64,000 bases of DNA, taken from NCBI RefSeq assembly GCF_000026545.1, contig NC_011601.1; one strand, written 5' to 3'. The position numbers and the translations under genes were made by a program. Below the pieces are notes generated by a model, which worked only from the letters and a program-made list of their open reading frames with translations, was not told the DNA's origin and made no database searches. Source of the DNA: Escherichia coli O127:H6 str. E2348/69. GTDB taxonomy: Bacteria; Pseudomonadota; Gammaproteobacteria; Enterobacterales; Enterobacteriaceae. Shown here piece by piece: positions 29,289 to 63,824 of this stretch (the first letter of the stretch is position 1; each line of letters begins with the position of its first letter).

Positions 29289-30197
29289 ATGGCTGCCATT
29301 AATACGAAAGTCAAAAAAGCCGTTATCCCCGTAGCGGGATTAGGAACCAGGATGTTGCCGGCGACGAAAGCCATCCCGAAAGAGATGCTGCCACTTGTCG
29401 ATAAGCCATTAATTCAATACGTCGTGAATGAATGTATTGCGGCTGGCATTACTGAAATTGTGCTGGTTACTCACTCATCTAAAAACTCTATTGAAAACCA
29501 CTTTGATACCAGTTTTGAACTGGAAGCAATGCTGGAAAAACGTGTAAAACGTCAACTGCTTGATGAAGTGCAGTCTATTTGTCCGCCGCACGTGACTATT
29601 ATGCAAGTTCGTCAGGGGCTGGCGAAAGGCCTGGGACACGCGGTATTGTGTGCTCACCCGGTAGTGGGTGATGAACCTGTGGCTGTTATTTTGCCTGACG
29701 TTATTCTGGATGAATATGAATCCGATTTATCACAGGATAACCTGGCAGAGATGATCCGCCGCTTTGATGAAACGGGTCATAGCCAGATCATGGTTGAACC
29801 GGTTGCTGATGTGACCGCATATGGCGTTGTGGATTGCAAAGGCGTTGAATTAGCGCCGGGTGAAAGCGTACCGATGGTTGGCGTGGTTGAAAAACCAAAA
29901 GCGGATGTTGCGCCGTCTAATCTCGCTATTGTGGGTCGTTACGTACTTAGCGCGGATATTTGGCCGTTGCTGGCAAAAACCCCTCCTGGAGCTGGTGATG
30001 AAATTCAGCTCACTGACGCAATTGATATGCTGATCGAAAAAGAAACGGTTGAAGCCTATCATATGAAAGGGAAGAGCCATGACTGCGGTAATAAATTAGG
30101 TTACATGCAGGCCTTCGTTGAATACGGTATTCGTCATAACACCCTTGGCACGGAATTTAAAGCCTGGCTTGAAGAAGAGATGGGCATTAAGAAGTAA
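29289..30197 (+). CDS. galU: UTP-glucose-1-phosphate uridylyltransferase
   Basis: 302 aa, [26 protein letters not shown] motif. Confidence 0.95.
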
Positions 30198-30291
30198 CAT
30201 CCGTATCGGTGTTTTCCACGAAACGGTGTTGAGCAATCGACGCCGTTTTTTTATAGCTTATTCTTATTATATTGTCTTAAACCGGACAATA

Positions 30292-30318
30292 AAAAATCCC
30301 GCCGATGGCGGGATTTTT
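30292..30318. terminator. Bidirectional terminator between galU and hns
   Basis: AAATCCCGCC-gatg-GCGGGATTT hairpin flanked by A/T runs. Confidence 0.7.
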
Positions 30319-30340
30319 AGCATGTGCAATCTACAAAAGA

Positions 30341-30754
30341 TTATTGCTTGATCAGGAAATCGTCGAGGGATTTACCTTGCTCATCCATTGCTTTTTTGAT
30401 TACAGCTGGAGTACGGCCCTGGCCAGTCCAGGTTTTAGTTTCGCCGTTTTCGTCAACGTAGCTATATTTTGCCGGACGCTGAGCACGCTTAGCTTTGGTG
30501 CCAGATTTAACGGCAGCAAGGCTATTCAGCAGTTCGTTCGGGTCAATACCGTCAGCGATCAGCATTTCGCGATATTGCTGCAGTTTACGAGTGCGCTCTT
30601 CAACTTCAGCAGCAGCCGCGCTTTCTTCTTCGCGACGTTCGTTAACAACAACTTCTAATTTTTCCAGCATTTCTTCCAGCGTTTCAAGTGTACATTCTCT
30701 TGCCTGCGCACGAAGAGTACGGATGTTGTTCAGAATTTTAAGTGCTTCGCTCAT
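30341..30754 (-). CDS. hns: Nucleoid-associated protein H-NS
   Basis: 137 aa, [36 protein letters not shown]. Confidence 0.97.
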
Positions 30755-31357
30755 TGTAGTAATCTCAAACTTATATTGGGGTGGTTTGTTGAGGTAATAA
30801 TAGAGCCTTAAATTCAGTTGTGCAATAGCCAGGAATGTAAGGAATTCAAAATTGTTCTTTATTTTGTGCCGCCAATAATTATCTTTTCATAAAATTAGCC
30901 AGAAAAGACGCGGCATATAGCCCTATTTGCACCGATGATTTCGCAGCACGTGAGGTTAAAACTTCCTGATTCATGTCACATTTTATGGGGAGATAATCGT
31001 AGGCTGACGACCTTTCAGTCTTCTGTATTAGTCGTGTTTACGAGAATTCCCTATTAAGCGAATGATGAAAAGTAGAACAGTCGCAATAAGAGCAGGGACT
31101 TAGTATTGCACTATCTCCTGGAGGTCAACAGAGGGCTATTACATGCGCAACAGGTTAAAGATTGTGAATAGTTACCGGCAGTCATTTACCCGCTTATAAC
31201 AAGCGAGGCAGTTGTAATGATAGCTCAGAAGGATTATGCAAGGCTTCGTAAGGGAGAACGCATATACCACTTCTGTGCATACTATTGAGCTGAAAAACTG
31301 ACGAATTATGATAAACTCCAGCCAACTTTATTTCATATCATTGAGGGCCTGTGGTTG

Positions 31358-57463: not shown

Positions 57464-57883
57464 CTATGATGCGTTTTGTGCTTTCTTTTTACGGATTTCT
57501 TCGTAGATCATATTGTAATACTGTTTTTTCTCTTCAAGAGTTTTTAATAATTTATCCGCTTCACTTTCTGGCAGTTCGTCTAAGAGATCTAAAAAAATAC
57601 GTTGTCGTGGCGTTAGAACCCTTGTTTCATAACTGGAGGCTGTGTTCGTTGATGATGAAACGATACCATCCATCCATCCCCGGGGTAACCCAAAGGACTC
57701 TTCGATAATCTCCACCATATCATCAGCGATCCGTTTTTTTCCCTTTTTCCCCTCTGGGTACAACATTCTTGATACATAAGAAGGCTCGCGCCCGATCTTT
57801 CTGGCCACGTTAACCGCTTTACCATCGCATTTCTCATCACGAATTTTGATGAGTTGCTGTCGTCTAAATTCATATTTGTCCAT
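57464..57883 (-). CDS. Putative prophage repressor (short HTH protein in cI position)
   Basis: 139 aa, HTH-like segment AVNVARKIGREPSYVSRM, divergent from Cro-like gene. Confidence 0.55.
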   Translation of the reverse strand: MDKYEFRRQQLIKIRDEKCDGKAVNVARKIGREPSYVSRMLYPEGKKGKKRIADDMVEIIEESFGLPRGWMDGIVSSSTNTASSYETRVLTPRQRIFLDLLDELPESEADKLLKTLEEKKQYYNMIYEEIRKKKAQNAS

Positions 57884-57902
57884 AGGTAAATAATAGATGC
57901 GA

Positions 57903-57955
57903 TTACCGCAAGGTAAACAACCTGTGGGTATTGGTTTTTGTTTACCTGCGGGTAT
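57903..57955. promoter_or_regulatory. Divergent promoter/operator region with two TACC-N4-GGTA dyads
   Basis: TTACCGCAAGGTAA (57903-16) and TTACCTGCGGGTAT (57942-55) between repressor and Cro-like gene. Confidence 0.55.
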
Positions 57956-57983
57956 TCTTTGCTGTGTTTACTAAGGAGTAGCT

Positions 57984-58265
57984 ATGGAAGAATTAAGAAT
58001 ATTTCTCAATTCTCTTTCGTCAGATGAACAGCGTATGTTTGCATGCGAGTGTGGTACCAGCATCGGTTATCTAAGAAAGGCATTGAGTAAAGGTCAAGTG
58101 TTAGGGGCATCGTTATGTGTCCTTATTGAGCGAGCCAGTAATGGTGAAGTTACACGTCAGCAACTAAGGCCTTTTGATTGGATGAATATTTGGCCCGAGC
58201 TGGAAGATACCAAAACGTTAACACAACCACTTTCTAGGAGCTTGATTCATGAAAATCAAGCATGA
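57984..58265 (+). CDS. Cro/YdaS-like HTH regulator
   Basis: 93 aa; motif ...GEVTRQQLRPFDW resembles YdaS-family Cro-like proteins. Confidence 0.6.
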   Translation: MEELRIFLNSLSSDEQRMFACECGTSIGYLRKALSKGQVLGASLCVLIERASNGEVTRQQLRPFDWMNIWPELEDTKTLTQPLSRSLIHENQA

Positions 58266-58674
58266 ACACATCCGCATGGCGATGAATGTCTGGGCGCATC
58301 CGGACGGCGAAAAAGTGCCGGCTGCGAAAATTACCAAAGCGTATTTCGAGCTGGGAATGACGTTCCCGGAACTGTATGACGACAGCCATCCGGAAGCCCT
58401 GGCCCGTAATACCCAGAAAATTTTCCGTTGGCTGGATAAAGACACCCCTGATGCTGTTGAAAAAATGCAGGCTCTGTTACCGGCGATCGAAAAGGCGATG
58501 CCGCCTTTGCTGGTGGCCCGTATGCGCAGCCACAGTTCTGAATATTACCGTGAGATCGTCGAACGGAGGGATCGGCTGGTGAAGGATGTCGATGATTTTG
58601 TTGCGTCAGCGGTTGTTTTGTATGACCAGATGAATCGCGGCGGCCCGGCAGGGAATGCTGTGGTGATGCACTAA
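58249..58674 (+). CDS. YdaT-like (CII-position) prophage regulator
   Basis: 141 aa beginning MKIKHEHI as in YdaT family; overlaps Cro-like gene 3' end. Confidence 0.6.
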   Translation: MKIKHEHIRMAMNVWAHPDGEKVPAAKITKAYFELGMTFPELYDDSHPEALARNTQKIFRWLDKDTPDAVEKMQALLPAIEKAMPPLLVARMRSHSSEYYREIVERRDRLVKDVDDFVASAVVLYDQMNRGGPAGNAVVMH

Positions 58675-58681
58675 AAGCACG

Positions 58682-59659
58682 GTGTTCGGGGGTTTTATGA
58701 GCAGCAAGCTTCATGGTCTTGTCTGGGAAGGGTGCGCCTTCACCGGCATGATCTTATCCAGGGGGGCGGTTATGGCCCGTCTTGCAGACTACAGCAATGA
58801 CGAGGGCGTGTCATGGCCTGCCATTGAAACTATCCGGCGTCAGATCGGTGCAAGAAGTGAATCCACAGTGAAATCGGCTATTGCAGAACTGGCGAAAGAG
58901 GGCTGGCTGACGAAGGAAGAGCGTAAGGTCGGTGGGCGTAATGTAAGCAATATCTATCGGCTTAATGTGGAAAAACTCGAAGCAGCTGCGGCGGCGGCGC
59001 GTGAGTCATATAAACCGAAAAGAAAAATTAGCCCGGCAAAAAATGACCCGTTAACAGTTGACCCGTCAAATATTGACCCCTCAACGGTTGACCCGTCAAA
59101 TTTTGATGGATCAACTGTTGATAAAAAACTGCCGATTAGGGGGGCGATGATTGACCCCGATCCGTCAGTATTAAAACCTGATCCGTCAGATAAAAGATCT
59201 TCTTGTCCGGACGCTTCGCAACCGGACCCGCAGACGGCTGAACAGGATTTTTTAACCCGACACCCTGACGCGGTTGTGTTCAGTGCGAAAAAACGCCAGT
59301 GGGGAAGTCAGGAAGATTTGGTGTGCGCACAGTGGATCTGGGGACGAATCGTGAGTCTTTACGAGCAGGCGGCCAGCTATGATGGCGAGATCACTAGACC
59401 GAAAGAACCCAACTGGACAGCATGGGCCAATGACGTTCGCACAATGCGGATGCTGGATGGCAGAACTCACAGACAAATTTGTGAAATGTTTGGGCGTCTC
59501 CAGCGGGATTCGTTCTGGGTAAAAAACATCATGAGTCCGGCAAAACTCCGGGAAAAATGGGATGAACTGGTTATCCGCCTGGGGCGTTCGCCTGCGCAGC
59601 GTTGCGTGAATCACATTTCTGAACCGGACACTGAAATTCCGCCGGGCTTCAGGGGGTAA
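58682..59659 (+). CDS. Phage replication initiation protein (O-like, N-terminal HTH)
   Basis: Position after cro/cII; N-terminal winged-helix-like region; Pro/Asp-rich repeats VDPSNIDPSTVDPSNFD; start 58682 (GTG) or 58697 (ATG). Confidence 0.6.
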   Translation: MFGGFMSSKLHGLVWEGCAFTGMILSRGAVMARLADYSNDEGVSWPAIETIRRQIGARSESTVKSAIAELAKEGWLTKEERKVGGRNVSNIYRLNVEKLEAAAAAARESYKPKRKISPAKNDPLTVDPSNIDPSTVDPSNFDGSTVDKKLPIRGAMIDPDPSVLKPDPSDKRSSCPDASQPDPQTAEQDFLTRHPDAVVFSAKKRQWGSQEDLVCAQWIWGRIVSLYEQAASYDGEITRPKEPNWTAWANDVRTMRMLDGRTHRQICEMFGRLQRDSFWVKNIMSPAKLREKWDELVIRLGRSPAQRCVNHISEPDTEIPPGFRG

Positions 59660-59699
59660 GTGTTAATTTCTGGTCATGAGGTAATTTTCAGGAGGGCTT

Positions 59700-60122
59700 G
59701 TGGCAAAAGTTTTTACACAAGAAGAGCGGGAAAAAATTAAAGGGCAGGTTGTTGAACTCGTACGCCAGAGTGGGCGCGAGACGTTACGACAACTGGAAAC
59801 TAAAACTGGGGCAACAAGATATCTGATGAGCGTTCTGGCCAGAGAGCTGGTTGCCAGTGGCGATGTATACAACTCTGGTTACGGGTTATTCCCGTCTGAA
59901 CAGGCGCGTAAGGACTGGCAAAATGCCCGTAAAAAGCTCTCAAGGGCAAAGCTGAAGAAACCATCTGCGGTTGATCCGGACCTTATCTGGTCATTACCTG
60001 ACGGAGAAATACGTCGCTACGACAGGCGTCAGAACATAATCTGTCGCGAGTGCCGGAAGAGCGAAGCTATGCAGCGCGTACTGGCGTTTTATCAGGGGAA
60101 TTTTGAGGAGGTGGTGCGGTGA
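59700..60122 (+). CDS. Hypothetical protein in the P/helicase-loader position
   Basis: 140 aa, GTG start, basic, CRECRK motif; no ATPase motif seen. Confidence 0.45.
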   Translation: MAKVFTQEEREKIKGQVVELVRQSGRETLRQLETKTGATRYLMSVLARELVASGDVYNSGYGLFPSEQARKDWQNARKKLSRAKLKKPSAVDPDLIWSLPDGEIRRYDRRQNIICRECRKSEAMQRVLAFYQGNFEEVVR

Positions 60123-60365
60123 GTGAATCAAAATGCCAGGTTAATGGCAACAAGATAGAACCATGTGCAGCACTGGCAAAGTCCCTTGAGCGTGATGCTG
60201 AATACACGATGCGAAAAGGTCTGCTGATATACAAAATCTGAAATGAGAGTTTAACTCGCGGTCCTGATTTTGTGATGTTGCGTTCCGGTGAATTTTCTAA
60301 ATTACCAGTTCGGGTTTCATTTTGTCCGTTCTGTGGTGAAAGTCTGAAAACGTGGGAGAACAGAA

Positions 60366-60677
60366 ATGAATGAAATTAAAGAAATACCAGTAGTACGTGA
60401 TGAATATGGCTGCTGGACGCATCCTGAATATGAAAAATTCTGTGACGGTCGGGAATATATTTCAACGGAAGAGTTTAACGCCTGGATGGAGGAAAATAAT
60501 CTTCAATACGTCCTCTGCTTCAGAGATGAAGGATGTGCTGACCTTGATGCGTGTGATGCTGATATTTCTGCATGGGAACCGGAACGACCAGAGGGCAATG
60601 GATGGTTTATTGGTTCAATACATGACACCGAAGATGGCCCGGTTTGTGTATGGCTGAGAAATAAGGTCGAAGCATAA
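60366..60677 (+). CDS. Hypothetical acidic Cys-containing prophage protein (nin-region type)
   Basis: 103 aa, strong ORF with good start context. Confidence 0.5.
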   Translation: MNEIKEIPVVRDEYGCWTHPEYEKFCDGREYISTEEFNAWMEENNLQYVLCFRDEGCADLDACDADISAWEPERPEGNGWFIGSIHDTEDGPVCVWLRNKVEA

Positions 60678-60809
60678 AGGCTATAAACCGACTAACAACT
60701 AAATACTGAAGATTTAAATCAGAAACGATTTTTATTAAATCCTTAACCGGAGGGATTCCTGCACCCTCAAATCATCAGGAGGCCGCCCGAAAGGGCGGTG
60801 GAGATAATA

Positions 60810-61331
60810 ATGGGAATAACTAAAGAACGATTGTTGGAAATAGCAAACCTTAGTGATTGGGCATTAAGTGATGAGAGAATTGTTTCTCCTCATGCTTATG
60901 AGTCAGTTACAAGTATAGAAATAACAACAATGGCTAGAATGCTGCTTGGTTATTTCAAAATAGAAAATAAAAAACAGATGGATAGTAATGTTGATATATG
61001 TGAGATTTTAGACGATTGGGGGGCTTGGGTTGTGGCTGGTAATAGTTCTATTGATTGGCAGGAAATAGCTGATAAATATAAAAATGTTGTTCCTCATGGT
61101 AAAAAATCACGTCGTCAGTGCAGCAATGATGAAGGGCGAATTATTGACATTAGTATCCTTAGGTTAGAAAGATATAAGCAACAAGAATATGAGTTAATTG
61201 TTGCTCATTTCGTGATTGGTTTATCTCTTCGTGCTATTGCAAAGCAACAAGGATGTTCAGATGGAACAATTCGTAAAAGATTGCAAAAAGCCTTAGGTTT
61301 TTTGACTGGATATATAGCAATTACCAGTTAA
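60810..61331 (+). CDS. Q: Late-gene antitermination protein Q (933W/H-19B-type Q family)
   Basis: Matches recalled 933W-type Q: WGAW, SRRQCSNDEG, and C-terminal HTH GLSLRAIAKQQGCSDGTIRKRLQKALGFL. Confidence 0.75.
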   Translation: MGITKERLLEIANLSDWALSDERIVSPHAYESVTSIEITTMARMLLGYFKIENKKQMDSNVDICEILDDWGAWVVAGNSSIDWQEIADKYKNVVPHGKKSRRQCSNDEGRIIDISILRLERYKQQEYELIVAHFVIGLSLRAIAKQQGCSDGTIRKRLQKALGFLTGYIAITS

Positions 61332-61969
61332 GAGTCAGCGGTTTTTTTACCAGTGTAATGGTATAAGGATACTCCCATGTGTCTTACATGATATGGAAGC
61401 GCTGTTGCTGGATGCTTTGTGATACTCTTAAAGCGGAGGGGAGAGCCTTCCGCTTCAATTTCTGCGTCCGAAACGGTCGTAGAGAAAAATTCTTTCCATT
61501 CATTGAATTTTACTGCTGATTTGTCAGACTTTATATAAATTAGAATTCCTCCATGATCGTCACGTGACGTACCCGTGCCGTAACGTTCGGTTAGCTGAAT
61601 CCAGCCATTATGAATAGATTTGGGGCCTCTCCATAATTTTGCTTCACCGATCCATTCGAATTTTCCGAATTGATGTTTAACTAATAAATCAACGTGACCG
61701 CCATGTTGAGTATCATGTTCAACATCATAAAACCTACCTTTCAGGAAATTTTTGATCGACGCTGTTAGCTCGTCCTCTCCCCACTTAGCATCTTGATAGA
61801 AGTGTTTGTCATTTTCTAAATTCTGAATAGCGTCGTCTAAATCTTCATAGAGTTGCTTTACAAAAATATTTTTGTCTGCAGCTAATTTTCTTTGAACCAT
61901 TCCCCTAAATTCAGGATCCATTCTAATTAATGATTGAAGGTCTGCAGTACAGATGTTTACATCACTCAT
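61328..61969 (-). CDS. Cassette gene C: predicted PD-(D/E)xK-like nuclease (213 aa)
   Basis: ATG 61969 overlaps stop of gene B; motif GEDE...HVDLLV...EWIGEAK (E, D, ExK spacing typical of restriction-endonuclease fold); AT-rich. Confidence 0.6.
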   Translation of the reverse strand: MSDVNICTADLQSLIRMDPEFRGMVQRKLAADKNIFVKQLYEDLDDAIQNLENDKHFYQDAKWGEDELTASIKNFLKGRFYDVEHDTQHGGHVDLLVKHQFGKFEWIGEAKLWRGPKSIHNGWIQLTERYGTGTSRDDHGGILIYIKSDKSAVKFNEWKEFFSTTVSDAEIEAEGSPLRFKSITKHPATALPYHVRHMGVSLYHYTGKKTADS

Positions 61970-62390
61970 GCAGACTCTCCAAAAGACTCGAAGGAGTAAA
62001 GTATGGATAAAGATACTGGCTAAAATTATCAACCAATTCGCCAGTTTCTGGATGGTAAAAACTTCCTGTGTCTAAAGCATAGGAAATAAGATCATCTTCA
62101 ACTGGTATTGGTTCTTCCGTTAAATTATCAATGTATTGAAAATGCATATCCAATAGATGTGCTTTATAGCTAGATAAATAATCAGTTGCTTTTATTAGCA
62201 GGATATAGCCATCTTTCGTATCAGTTAGATAGGTTAAACCATTGATAAGGGTTTTGTATGTAAAGTGATTGATATTTTTAGCATCTTTACTAACCAGAAA
62301 AAGAAAAAGATCACGACACACACTGCGAACAGGATCATTAAAATCCTGCTCTATTTGCGTGATAATGTCGTGATATATACTCTTTTTCAT
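61962..62390 (-). CDS. Cassette gene B: hypothetical protein (142 aa)
   Basis: ATG overlaps stop of gene A (ATGA); no recognised motif; AT-rich. Confidence 0.6.
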   Translation of the reverse strand: MKKSIYHDIITQIEQDFNDPVRSVCRDLFLFLVSKDAKNINHFTYKTLINGLTYLTDTKDGYILLIKATDYLSSYKAHLLDMHFQYIDNLTEEPIPVEDDLISYALDTGSFYHPETGELVDNFSQYLYPYFTPSSLLESLHE

Positions 62391-63478
62391 TTATGGCCTG
62401 ATGATCTCGCTCTTCTTTTCTCTTCACAGGACTTAACAGAATCCAATATTTTTTCAACAATAAATATAATCGAATCAATGTTGTTACAGTTCTTCGCAAT
62501 TGCTTCATGCAACCTAATTCTAGGATTATCAAGCATTGTCCTTTTTCCTGGTAATATTAACTCTACTGATAAAATATGTGAAGAACTTTGTGGTAAATCC
62601 CAAATTTTTCCCAACTTAAACTTTGTCAATATTGGGCTTGCGGACTCTCCACTATGATGGTAAACATCTTGACGCAAACACTTTTGACTTGGTTTGAGTT
62701 TTAAAGAACTTGTATTGCCATCTGAGGTGATAAAAGATACATGAGAAATTCTGCCATCTACTTTTTCGTAAAGATCTTGTATTGAACCAAATAATTCAAG
62801 AGGATTGTTTAAAATAACGCCAGCTTCTTTTTTTATAAATTTAGCCACAAGGTATTGTTGAGGCTGTGATTCACTTCTTGGAAGGATAGATAAATCAATC
62901 GTAAGAATTAATATTTTTTCTGCAGGCATTAGCATGATGGTATTAAAGCATTGCGTGACTTGGCGTGTTTTGCATTTTATTTCTCCACCATTAGCACGTA
63001 ATTCCATACCCGCATCGCTAAGATGTGTTGGGTCAAGCTCTATCACTTCAGTGTAATACGCTTTGGATAAAAAAACAGCAGTGTCAATTTGTTTATCACG
63101 AATGATATCTTGACGTAGTTCAGCAAAATGCAGCTCAGTATCAGCAACTAACAGCTCCTCTCTGGATAAAGGAATTGGGTATTTTTCTGAGAAGGGGCTA
63201 TTGTCCTTTTTCTGATTTGTGAAAATTGTTTGTAATTTTGCTACGTCTTCATCGGTGATTCTATAAATAGAAAGTAATCGATTCCCGCTAAAAATTAAAC
63301 CTTTCCAGAAATCGTCGATTCTGTCTTTTAGGTCGGGATTATGCTGAACTACACTATTTACACGTTCAATAAAAAGGGGTAATCCTTGGGCCGTTACACC
63401 CAGTGATGAACCAAGAAGCTTACGGGTGTTGCGCCAGCCAAAGCGTGAATTGATGTTTTTTACTGTTTGCTCAAGCAT
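62387..63478 (-). CDS. Cassette gene A: hypothetical protein (363 aa)
   Basis: ATG 63478 preceded by AAGGAAG; no Walker A or other motif recognised; AT-rich. Confidence 0.6.
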   Translation of the reverse strand: MLEQTVKNINSRFGWRNTRKLLGSSLGVTAQGLPLFIERVNSVVQHNPDLKDRIDDFWKGLIFSGNRLLSIYRITDEDVAKLQTIFTNQKKDNSPFSEKYPIPLSREELLVADTELHFAELRQDIIRDKQIDTAVFLSKAYYTEVIELDPTHLSDAGMELRANGGEIKCKTRQVTQCFNTIMLMPAEKILILTIDLSILPRSESQPQQYLVAKFIKKEAGVILNNPLELFGSIQDLYEKVDGRISHVSFITSDGNTSSLKLKPSQKCLRQDVYHHSGESASPILTKFKLGKIWDLPQSSSHILSVELILPGKRTMLDNPRIRLHEAIAKNCNNIDSIIFIVEKILDSVKSCEEKRRARSSGHK

Positions 63479-63824
63479 TAACACTTCCTTAATTTTCCCT
63501 TAACAATTTAGGGTGCTAAACTTTTTTGCGCAGTTTACATAAAAAAATAGTGCGTACGCAAAAACTATCTAACATGATGAGCTTTAACCGGGAAATTTGT
63601 ATATGTTGTGAGCATAAAGTTGGCTGAGAAATCTAAAACGGGTAGAATGACTGCGGGTGCTTGAGGCTATCTGTCTCAGGCATGAACACCAAAAGGCAGA
63701 TAGAGAAAAGCCCCAGTTAACATTACGCGTCCGGCAAGACGCTTAACATTAATCTGAGGCCATATCTATGCTCTACACACGTAGGTTAGCCTCTTACGTG
63801 CCGAAAGGCAAGGAGAAGCAGGCT

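Follow-up and report, generated by a model that had tools for sequence, protein, structure and literature searches.

We analysed a 64,000-nucleotide stretch of the Escherichia coli O127:H6 str. E2348/69 chromosome, hereafter the window, and in particular the genes that follow the replication initiator of a lambdoid prophage. The stretch 58682-60800 is 100% identical to the E. coli E2348/69 (O127:H6) chromosome, and the host element is a ~45-kb lambdoid prophage whose integration site adjoins ompW. A first-pass annotation had pointed out that no recognisable helicase loader follows the initiator, and that a basic 140-aa protein and short open reading frames (ORFs) stand there instead. These objects lie where they had been placed and the observation was confirmed. 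The features on which the argument rests are as follows.

58682-59659, + strand: O-like initiator (PHROG 391, Pfam HTH_36, RefSeq coding sequence)
59023-59119, inside the initiator gene: putative origin iterons (repeat search)
59600-59656, + strand: coding sequence of the 19-residue C-terminal tail of the initiator
59660-59699, + strand: 40-nt intergenic junction, short form
59700-60122, + strand: Ren-family protein (DUF977 / LygF), 140 aa (PF06163, PHROG 142)
60119-60373, + strand: 84-codon gene (p84), here a pseudogene (PHROG 4030; 'rac21' in phage Rac-SA53)
60239-60241, + strand: premature TGA (Trp41 to stop; G-to-A at 60241)
60366-60677, + strand: acidic 103-aa protein (p103; PHROG 1372, E 1.4e-55; 'rac22')

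No + strand promoter-like or terminator-like sites were found among the genes at 57464-61331, and the early-right genes, up to a Q-family antiterminator gene, are therefore read as one operon.

The lack of a loader concerns the whole element. Tblastn of the 64-kb window and of the whole 45-kb prophage gave no match at E<=1 to lambda P, to a phage DnaC-like loader, to P22 gp12 (DnaB type) or to a short P-like protein, and the RefSeq annotation of the prophage lists no helicase or loader, which bears out the first-pass statement that a recognisable loader is absent after the initiator. A Pfam scan likewise found no P (PF06992), DnaC/IstB AAA+ (PF01695) or DnaB-type domain; control loaders and helicases matched their own Pfam families, and the negative result is therefore meaningful. 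The prophage fits the definition of an initiator-only module, with an O homologue present and a helicase or loader absent, that was given in a 2025 study of phage LLS (PMC12315714). In that study 34 of 314 Enterobacteriales lambdoid phages encode an O homologue only, and their replication is described as "not yet understood"; LLS itself forms plaques and was grown on E. coli K-12 (PMC12315714). No loader was found in the complete genomes of phages HannyBb and mEp460_ev081, which have the same initiator C-terminal half as the prophage, and tblastn of the LLS genome found no P, DnaC, DnaB or Ren homologue.

The initiator is 325 aa long from its GTG start (the RefSeq start is 58697) and matches PHROG 391 with an E value of 2e-114. 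Its layout comprises an N-terminal HTH_36 origin-binding domain, a central iteron-coding linker, a lambda-O-type C-terminal domain and a DnaT-type tail, with residues 158-305 aligning to lambda O 145-277 at 35% identity (E 5e-26). Phage_rep_O (PF04492) was absent from the N-terminus in the Pfam search and HTH_36 was matched instead; lambda O, used as a control, matches PF04492. Within the gene, four direct copies of a repeat with the core TTGACCCGTCAA lie at 59023-59097 with 15-nt spacing, and the copies additionally build a 33-nt inverted repeat (59023-59119). This placement of repeats inside the initiator gene is the same as that of ori-lambda inside gene O, and we infer that the repeats at 59023-59119 are putative origin iterons. 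The initiator ORF, the iterons and the tail are all intact in the E2348/69 prophage.

The initiator ends ...SEPDTEIPPGFRG. Its last 19 residues form the tail RCVNHISEPDTEIPPGFRG, and its extreme C-terminus, directly before the stop codon, is ...ISEPDTEIPPGFRG. E. coli DnaT, which is encoded immediately upstream of dnaC, ends ...RDVNTVSEPDSQIPPGFRG, and the initiator and DnaT have in common a tail motif that we define here as S-x-P-D-x-x-I-P-x-G-F-R-G. The last 19 residues are also all that the initiator has in common with the otherwise unrelated initiator of Shigella phage POCJ13. When the NCBIfam DnaT model (NF002770) is aligned to the initiator, its last 21 positions (159-179) fall on residues 305-325 with 16.7 bits against a cut-off of 201, and no Pfam match to the DnaT DNA-binding domain (PF17948) was found in the initiator. 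As judged from its sequence, the initiator has a DnaT tail but is not a DnaT.

Across our surveys, presence of the tail follows the type of loader without exception. A Ren-anchored survey covered 80 viral contigs encoding a close relative of the Ren-like protein. There, 22 of the 22 readable initiators before a dnaC-like gene end xPDxxIPPGFRG, on several unrelated bodies, and the IPPGFRG tail stands on all 44 readable loader-less initiators; before a P-like gene, 9/9 initiators end ...DC[TP]DW[RC]DD and the tail is found on 0/9. Among dnaC-like-anchored viral contigs, all 78 upstream ORFs, which fall into four initiator homology groups, end IPxGF[RKT]G, whereas the tail was found on 0/77 ORFs in lambda P-anchored viral contigs, all of which end ...DLTNTDWIYGV[DE]L. 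YdaU-type initiator bodies have the TDW end before P-like genes and the IPPGFRG end before dnaC-like genes. In the host, a survey of 80 Enterobacteriaceae genomes with tail-less DnaT as the query found dnaC immediately downstream of dnaT in 80/80, and across these species the DnaT tail has a mean identity of 0.80, compared with 0.85 for the C-terminal and 0.74 for the N-terminal domain.

Different synonymous codons for IPPGFRG are used in the window, in dnaT, in another phage type and in LLS, which points to selection at the peptide level. In LLS O, whose C-terminal domain is different, the end is ...VDTKIPEGFRG, and the motif is retained in this and the other diverged tail variants (SLPDSAIPPGFRG, IPPGFKG). 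A literature text search found no mention of IPPGFRG or PPGFRG in the papers that it covered. The surveys show a tail that marks proteins predicted to work next to a DnaC-type loader, and loader-less initiators retain it. Initiators before P-type loaders carry an acidic TDW/PDW tail (lambda O, L004:787-1686, ...DLTNTDWIYGVDL; YdaU-type, L003:1173-2243 in Rac-SA53, ...FEALDC[TP]DW[RC]DD), a possible P-specific equivalent of the IPPGFRG tail. One contig classed as viral, L253 (IMGVR_UViG_648276647_000010), holds the host dnaT-dnaC pair with a DnaC 100% identical to that of E. coli, and is probably a mis-binned chromosomal fragment.

We next consider what stands between the initiator and the ren-like gene. 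In the 80 Ren-anchored loci, the initiator is directly adjacent to the ren-like gene in 45, is followed by a dnaC-like and a DUF1627 gene in 26, and by a short P-like and a DUF1627 gene in nine. Over its full length, the phage DnaC-like protein is homologous to E. coli DnaC (6qel_G, E 2.4e-74). At locus L044, an O gene identical to that of the window at 973 of 976 nt is followed by dnaC-like, DUF1627 and ren-like genes; from the O stop codon to the ren-like ribosome-binding site, homology to the window is interrupted by a 1.5-kb cassette. New here is that the same initiator occurs with and without the cassette, inserted exactly between its stop and the ren-like gene. In a survey anchored on the initiator C-terminus, 80 loci with a C-terminus identical to that of the window comprised 59 of the long form and 21 of the short form. 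Short forms with three different initiator types have one and the same 40-nt spacer, which has no similarity to the cassette, so that short and long forms behave as alternative alleles and not as decay products. An origin of the short form by repeated independent deletions was rejected on account of this shared spacer, unrelated to the cassette.

The DUF1627 protein (~256 aa with a winged-helix N-terminus; e.g. L007:3334-4104 and L044:4215-4985) accompanies the loader, DnaC-like or P-like, in the 26+9 loci, where its gene lies between the loader and ren-like genes, and it is lost with the loader in short forms. Four loci (L119, L160, L161 and L164) have the long-form cassette with no ren-like gene within ~2.6 kb of the initiator stop, the range examined, and the ren-like gene is therefore not obligatory for DnaC-type modules either.

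The 140-aa protein itself starts at a GTG and has a pI of 9.8, with 28 K+R against 19 D+E. No Walker A motif was found in it and it has no loader homology, in agreement with its first description as a basic protein without ATPase motifs. It had also been called unknown, and this does not hold. The protein matches Pfam DUF977 (PF06163) over residues 1-135 with E 2.6e-30 and 105.7 bits (cut-off 22.1) and PHROG 142, 'Ren-like exclusion protein', with E 1.9e-48, and GenBank phage records name it LygF. BLASTP against lambda Ren gave 12/20 identical residues (E 4e-7), and hhalign of a Ren-free profile against lambda Ren gave a probability of 95% (E 3e-8) over 76 columns in the N- and C-terminal parts. 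DUF977 is a small family, with 103 cluster representatives among 1.84 billion proteins; the direct homologue search gave relatives at least 87% identical, and the diverse alignment was built from a 50%-cluster search. The C-terminal motif N-x2-C-x-ECR-x-S-x2-M-x-R is invariant across diverse DUF977 members and is present in lambda Ren, the form that covers lambda Ren being N-x2-[CF]-x-ECR-x-S-x2-M-x-R-V-L-A.

An AF2 model of the 140-aa protein (pLDDT 80) has an N-terminal winged helix, a helix at 67-83, a disordered basic linker and short C-terminal helices. Foldseek of this model against PDB and BFVD returned generic winged-helix matches only (E>0.006), with no loader-like fold among them, and a PDB sequence search gave nothing meaningful. 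By these comparisons, the 140-aa protein is a long form of lambda Ren. It is encoded directly behind the replication genes of the early-right operon, in the place that ren has in lambda, and the P slot is therefore empty and not, as had been thought, occupied by the 140-aa protein.

According to the supplement of 10.1101/2021.04.19.439022, Rex excludes ren mutants of lambda, suppressors of this phenotype lie in O and P, and both O and Ren interact with RexA/RexB; protection of the phage from Rex exclusion, by which ren is defined, is on record in that supplement for lambda only. The first-pass annotation had allowed that the 140-aa protein might match a known replication accessory factor, and this is half the case, in that Ren has a genetic, though no established biochemical, link to lambda replication. 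We infer that the 140-aa Ren-like protein acts as an accessory factor that binds DNA, and not as a loader. A gene named ydaW, which in K-12 may be either the DUF977 or the DUF1627 gene, scored as a blocker in a retron toxin/antitoxin screen. In HannyBb, tblastn found a second lambda-Ren-like fragment (L005:37447-37615; 41% identity over 53 aa, E 9e-7); the annotation of this region consists of a series of very small ORFs, pointing to frameshifts from sequencing or to a second ren in decay.

The module can be set beside several known systems. Lambda O-P-ren is of the 'initiator-helicase loader' type (Weigel & Seitz 2006, as cited in 10.1101/2021.04.19.439022). It shares with the window an initiator and then ren, iterons in the initiator gene, a homologous initiator C-terminal domain (35%) and a homologous Ren, whereas the window has no P, has the DnaT-type tail in place of the lambda end ...DLTNTDWIYGVDL, and has a Ren of 140 aa with an inserted basic linker compared with 96 aa in lambda. 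DnaC-type modules such as that of Shigella phage POCJ13 (gp16-19) have the same initiator tail and the same ren-like gene, and some of these loci have the very same initiator at 99% identity, but they carry dnaC-like and DUF1627 genes where the window has the 40-nt spacer. DnaC-type loaders are also found in the O157 Sakai prophages Sp4, Sp10 and Sp12 (PMC2669165).

LLS and 33 other initiator-only phages resemble the window in having an O homologue with no helicase or loader in the genome (PMC12315714), and LLS O is 64% identical to the window initiator in the N-terminal domain and ends ...IPEGFRG; LLS differs in its initiator C-terminal domain and in having no Ren-like gene. No mechanism is given for initiator-only modules in PMC12315714, and the tail is not mentioned. 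The dnaT-dnaC pair of E. coli is like the window in its ...VSEPDxxIPPGFRG end, and DnaT is encoded immediately upstream of a DnaC-type loader. Unlike DnaT, the window initiator has no DnaT N-terminal or DNA-binding domain and no dnaC behind it, and it would bind a specific origin, as opposed to the PriA/PriB-marked fork of DnaT.

We suggest, with a probability of roughly 60%, that the prophage module is a short initiator-only form in which the initiator draws in host DnaB-DnaC through its DnaT-type tail. The initiator would bind the iterons inside its own gene, and the tail would act as a docking peptide for a DnaC-type loader, or for DnaB-DnaC; in a prophage without its own dnaC, the initiator would then recruit the host DnaB-DnaC complex via the tail. 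At replication restart, host DnaT presumably delivers DnaB-DnaC in a way comparable to the proposed route. The iteron-binding plasmid initiators pSC101 RepA, R6K pi and RK2 TrfA have no loader of their own and depend on host DnaB-DnaC. They match the proposed mechanism, a likeness of mechanism only in which no sequence relationship is expected, and the contacts reported for them are with DnaB or DnaA, not through a DnaT-like tail. More tentatively, and with a little less than an even chance in our estimate, the tail may be the element by which host DnaT and many phage initiators recruit a DnaC-type loader carrying DnaB, with initiator-only phages mimicking it and the TDW tail specifying P-type loaders.

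Several points weigh against recruitment through the tail. The link between tail and DnaC is a correlation, and could partly reflect tail-coding DNA linked to dnaC at the module boundary, and the tail could contact DnaB, PriA or PriB instead. When a fusion of E. coli DnaC with the initiator C-terminus was modelled as a single chain in AF2, confidence was low, and the tail had a pLDDT <50 and was undocked. A 2026 preprimosome structure (PMC13377028), in which the recruitment of DnaB/DnaC by DnaT "remains unknown" and the tail is not discussed, puts forward the N-terminal domain of DnaT, and not its tail, for the recruitment of DnaB/DnaC. The long form is in the majority for the initiator of the window, and phage-borne dnaC therefore presumably gives some benefit. 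The E2348/69 prophage, moreover, has a pseudogene in this region and, at some distance behind it, an IS element.

The tail could also be a mere recombination linker at the module boundary, with the helicase arriving by another route, such as a lambda-O-type C-terminal domain binding DnaB directly, or PriA- or recombination-dependent loading. Tail-coding DNA is nearly identical between unrelated initiators, as for a mosaic joint, the low-confidence AF2 model left the tail undocked on DnaC, and LLS-type phages need RecBCD-Chi recombination for growth (PMC12315714). We nonetheless judge a mere linker unlikely, as the tail is kept at the protein level with synonymous codon changes, is conserved in the chromosomal DnaT of 80 species, retains its motif in the diverged variants given above, and follows the loader type on the same initiator body (YdaU-type, TDW versus IPPGFRG). 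For this copy it is also possible that the module is a dead remnant, its loader deleted in prophage decay and autonomous replication lost: the neighbouring gene is freshly pseudogenised, the prophage has an ISEc13 insertion, and the window's initiator occurs three times as often in the long form with dnaC as in the short form. Against decay stand the one conserved 40-nt junction, found with three initiator types and unrelated to the cassette, the occurrence of the short form in 45/80 Ren-anchored loci and in the complete phage genomes HannyBb and mEp460_ev081, the plaques formed by initiator-only LLS (PMC12315714), and the intact initiator ORF, iterons and tail, and we consider a dead remnant distinctly improbable.

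The Ren-like (DUF977) protein could itself be an adaptor that bridges the initiator and host DnaB and replaces P or DnaC. Its gene directly follows the initiator in every short form (45/45 Ren-anchored; 21/21 initiator-anchored), the protein is basic with a winged helix, and lambda ren is co-translated with O and P, to which its suppressors also map (10.1101/2021.04.19.439022 supplement). A role as loader is very unlikely because the protein accompanies DnaC- and P-type modules and is absent from LLS: the same Ren-like protein (>90% identical) also follows DnaC-like or P-like loader modules, lambda has both P and Ren, and initiator-only LLS has no Ren homologue. The protein also has no ATPase motif and no likeness to P, DnaC or a loader fold, and outside Rex+ hosts lambda can grow without ren. 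Recruitment of host DnaB-DnaC through the tail of the initiator is the reading that we prefer.

The short ORFs downstream of the ren-like gene had been described as unannotated GTG-initiated frames, one with a CPFCGES motif, that might be nin-type genes or non-coding sequence. The frames are indeed there, a 40-codon GTG ORF at 60119-60241 and a 33-codon GTG ORF with CPFCGES at 60272-60373, but 60119-60373 is already marked in RefSeq as an internal-stop pseudogene. Both lie in one frame and are the N- and C-terminal parts of the 84-codon gene, split by the TGA at 60239-60241. The PHROG 4030 profile (85 positions) was matched in two pieces, 2-40 and 54-84, and the PHROG 4030 gene is not present as a single uninterrupted ORF in the E2348/69 window. 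Phages mEp460_4F5 and Rac-SA53 have Trp at codon 41; a 57-mer with the TGA was found in three records, all E2348/69 / O127:H6, and the same 57-mer with TGG in 160 records. The TGA is one of two differences from the commonest allele of the gene.

An intact copy of the 84-codon gene was found in 28 of 29 related loci, at a pN/pS of 0.25, and the gene is thus conserved in relatives, where a lack of conservation had been named as grounds for dismissing the short ORFs. Its protein has four Cys residues (6, 16, 69 and 72). The gene overlaps its neighbours at both ends, its start with the ren-like stop (GTGA) and its stop with the start of the gene that follows, and ren-like, p84 and p103 form a translationally linked run of which p103 is the last; p103 co-occurs with p84 downstream of ren-like genes in related loci. 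Comparison of these sequences indicates that the short ORFs are one real, conserved small gene, recently inactivated by a nonsense mutation private to the E2348/69 lineage. Two independent nin-type genes were rejected in view of the one frame and the single PHROG profile, and programmed read-through or recoding at the TGA was rejected in view of TGG in 160 records and TGA in the E2348/69 lineage only. The 84-codon gene has no part in replication initiation.

The replication and ren block is flanked by regulatory genes.

57464-57883, - strand: repressor
57984-58265, + strand: cro/YdaS-like gene
58249-58674, + strand: cII/YdaT-like gene
60798-61331, + strand: Q-family antiterminator, 177 aa

The cro-like and cII-like genes (57984-58674) match Pfam YdaS_toxin and YdaT_toxin and PHROGs for a repressor and a CII-like activator, and as names for lambdoid regulators the 'toxin' labels are apparently artefacts. 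The prophage has two antiterminator Q-family genes, one at 60798-61331 after the replication/ren block and a second beside rusA, farther downstream and outside the window, at 30185-30874 of the prophage sequence L006; mEp460_ev081 likewise has two annotated Q genes. A G+C-rich hairpin (GCCGCCC-GAAA-GGGCGGT) at 60760-60800 lies on the ribosome-binding region of the Q-family gene and has no T run behind it. Between the second Q gene and the lysis genes, again outside the window, the prophage carries an ISEc13 transposase gene and tRNA-Arg/tRNA-Ile genes at L006:28235-29989, and the ISEc13 insertion may affect late-gene expression of the prophage.

Three convergent - strand genes at 61328-63484, coding for 365, 142 and ~197-234 aa, separate the Q-family gene from hokD and gave no Pfam matches. 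PADLOC gave no match for the Ren-like protein, p103 or two of these three genes, and only a weak PDC-S54 match (E 0.002) for the third (61328-62032). The trio looks like a moron and may be a defence cassette; in phage Rac-SA53 the equivalent place is taken by a reverse-strand gene of 1098 nt.

For annotation the region is ordinary: the Ren-family gene and the RefSeq-flagged pseudogene were already known, and the initiator-only kind of module was reported in 2025. The interpretation that we started from stands in part, in that the loader is missing and the 140-aa protein has no ATPase or loader features, but the protein is not an unknown one and the ORFs are neither separate nin-type genes nor non-coding. 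What is added is a specific, testable mechanism for initiator-only modules, and the handover by DnaT to DnaB-DnaC may be the same mechanism. The tail surveys thereby tie together two open questions, namely how initiator-only phages load their helicase (PMC12315714) and how DnaT recruits DnaB/DnaC (PMC13377028). The phage dnaC and DUF1627 genes form an optional cassette that is swapped at a fixed junction, which bears on how host dnaT-dnaC may have come from phages. If the proposal is true, one short peptide would explain both the loader-less tenth or so of lambdoid phages and the handover of the restart primosome to DnaB-DnaC.

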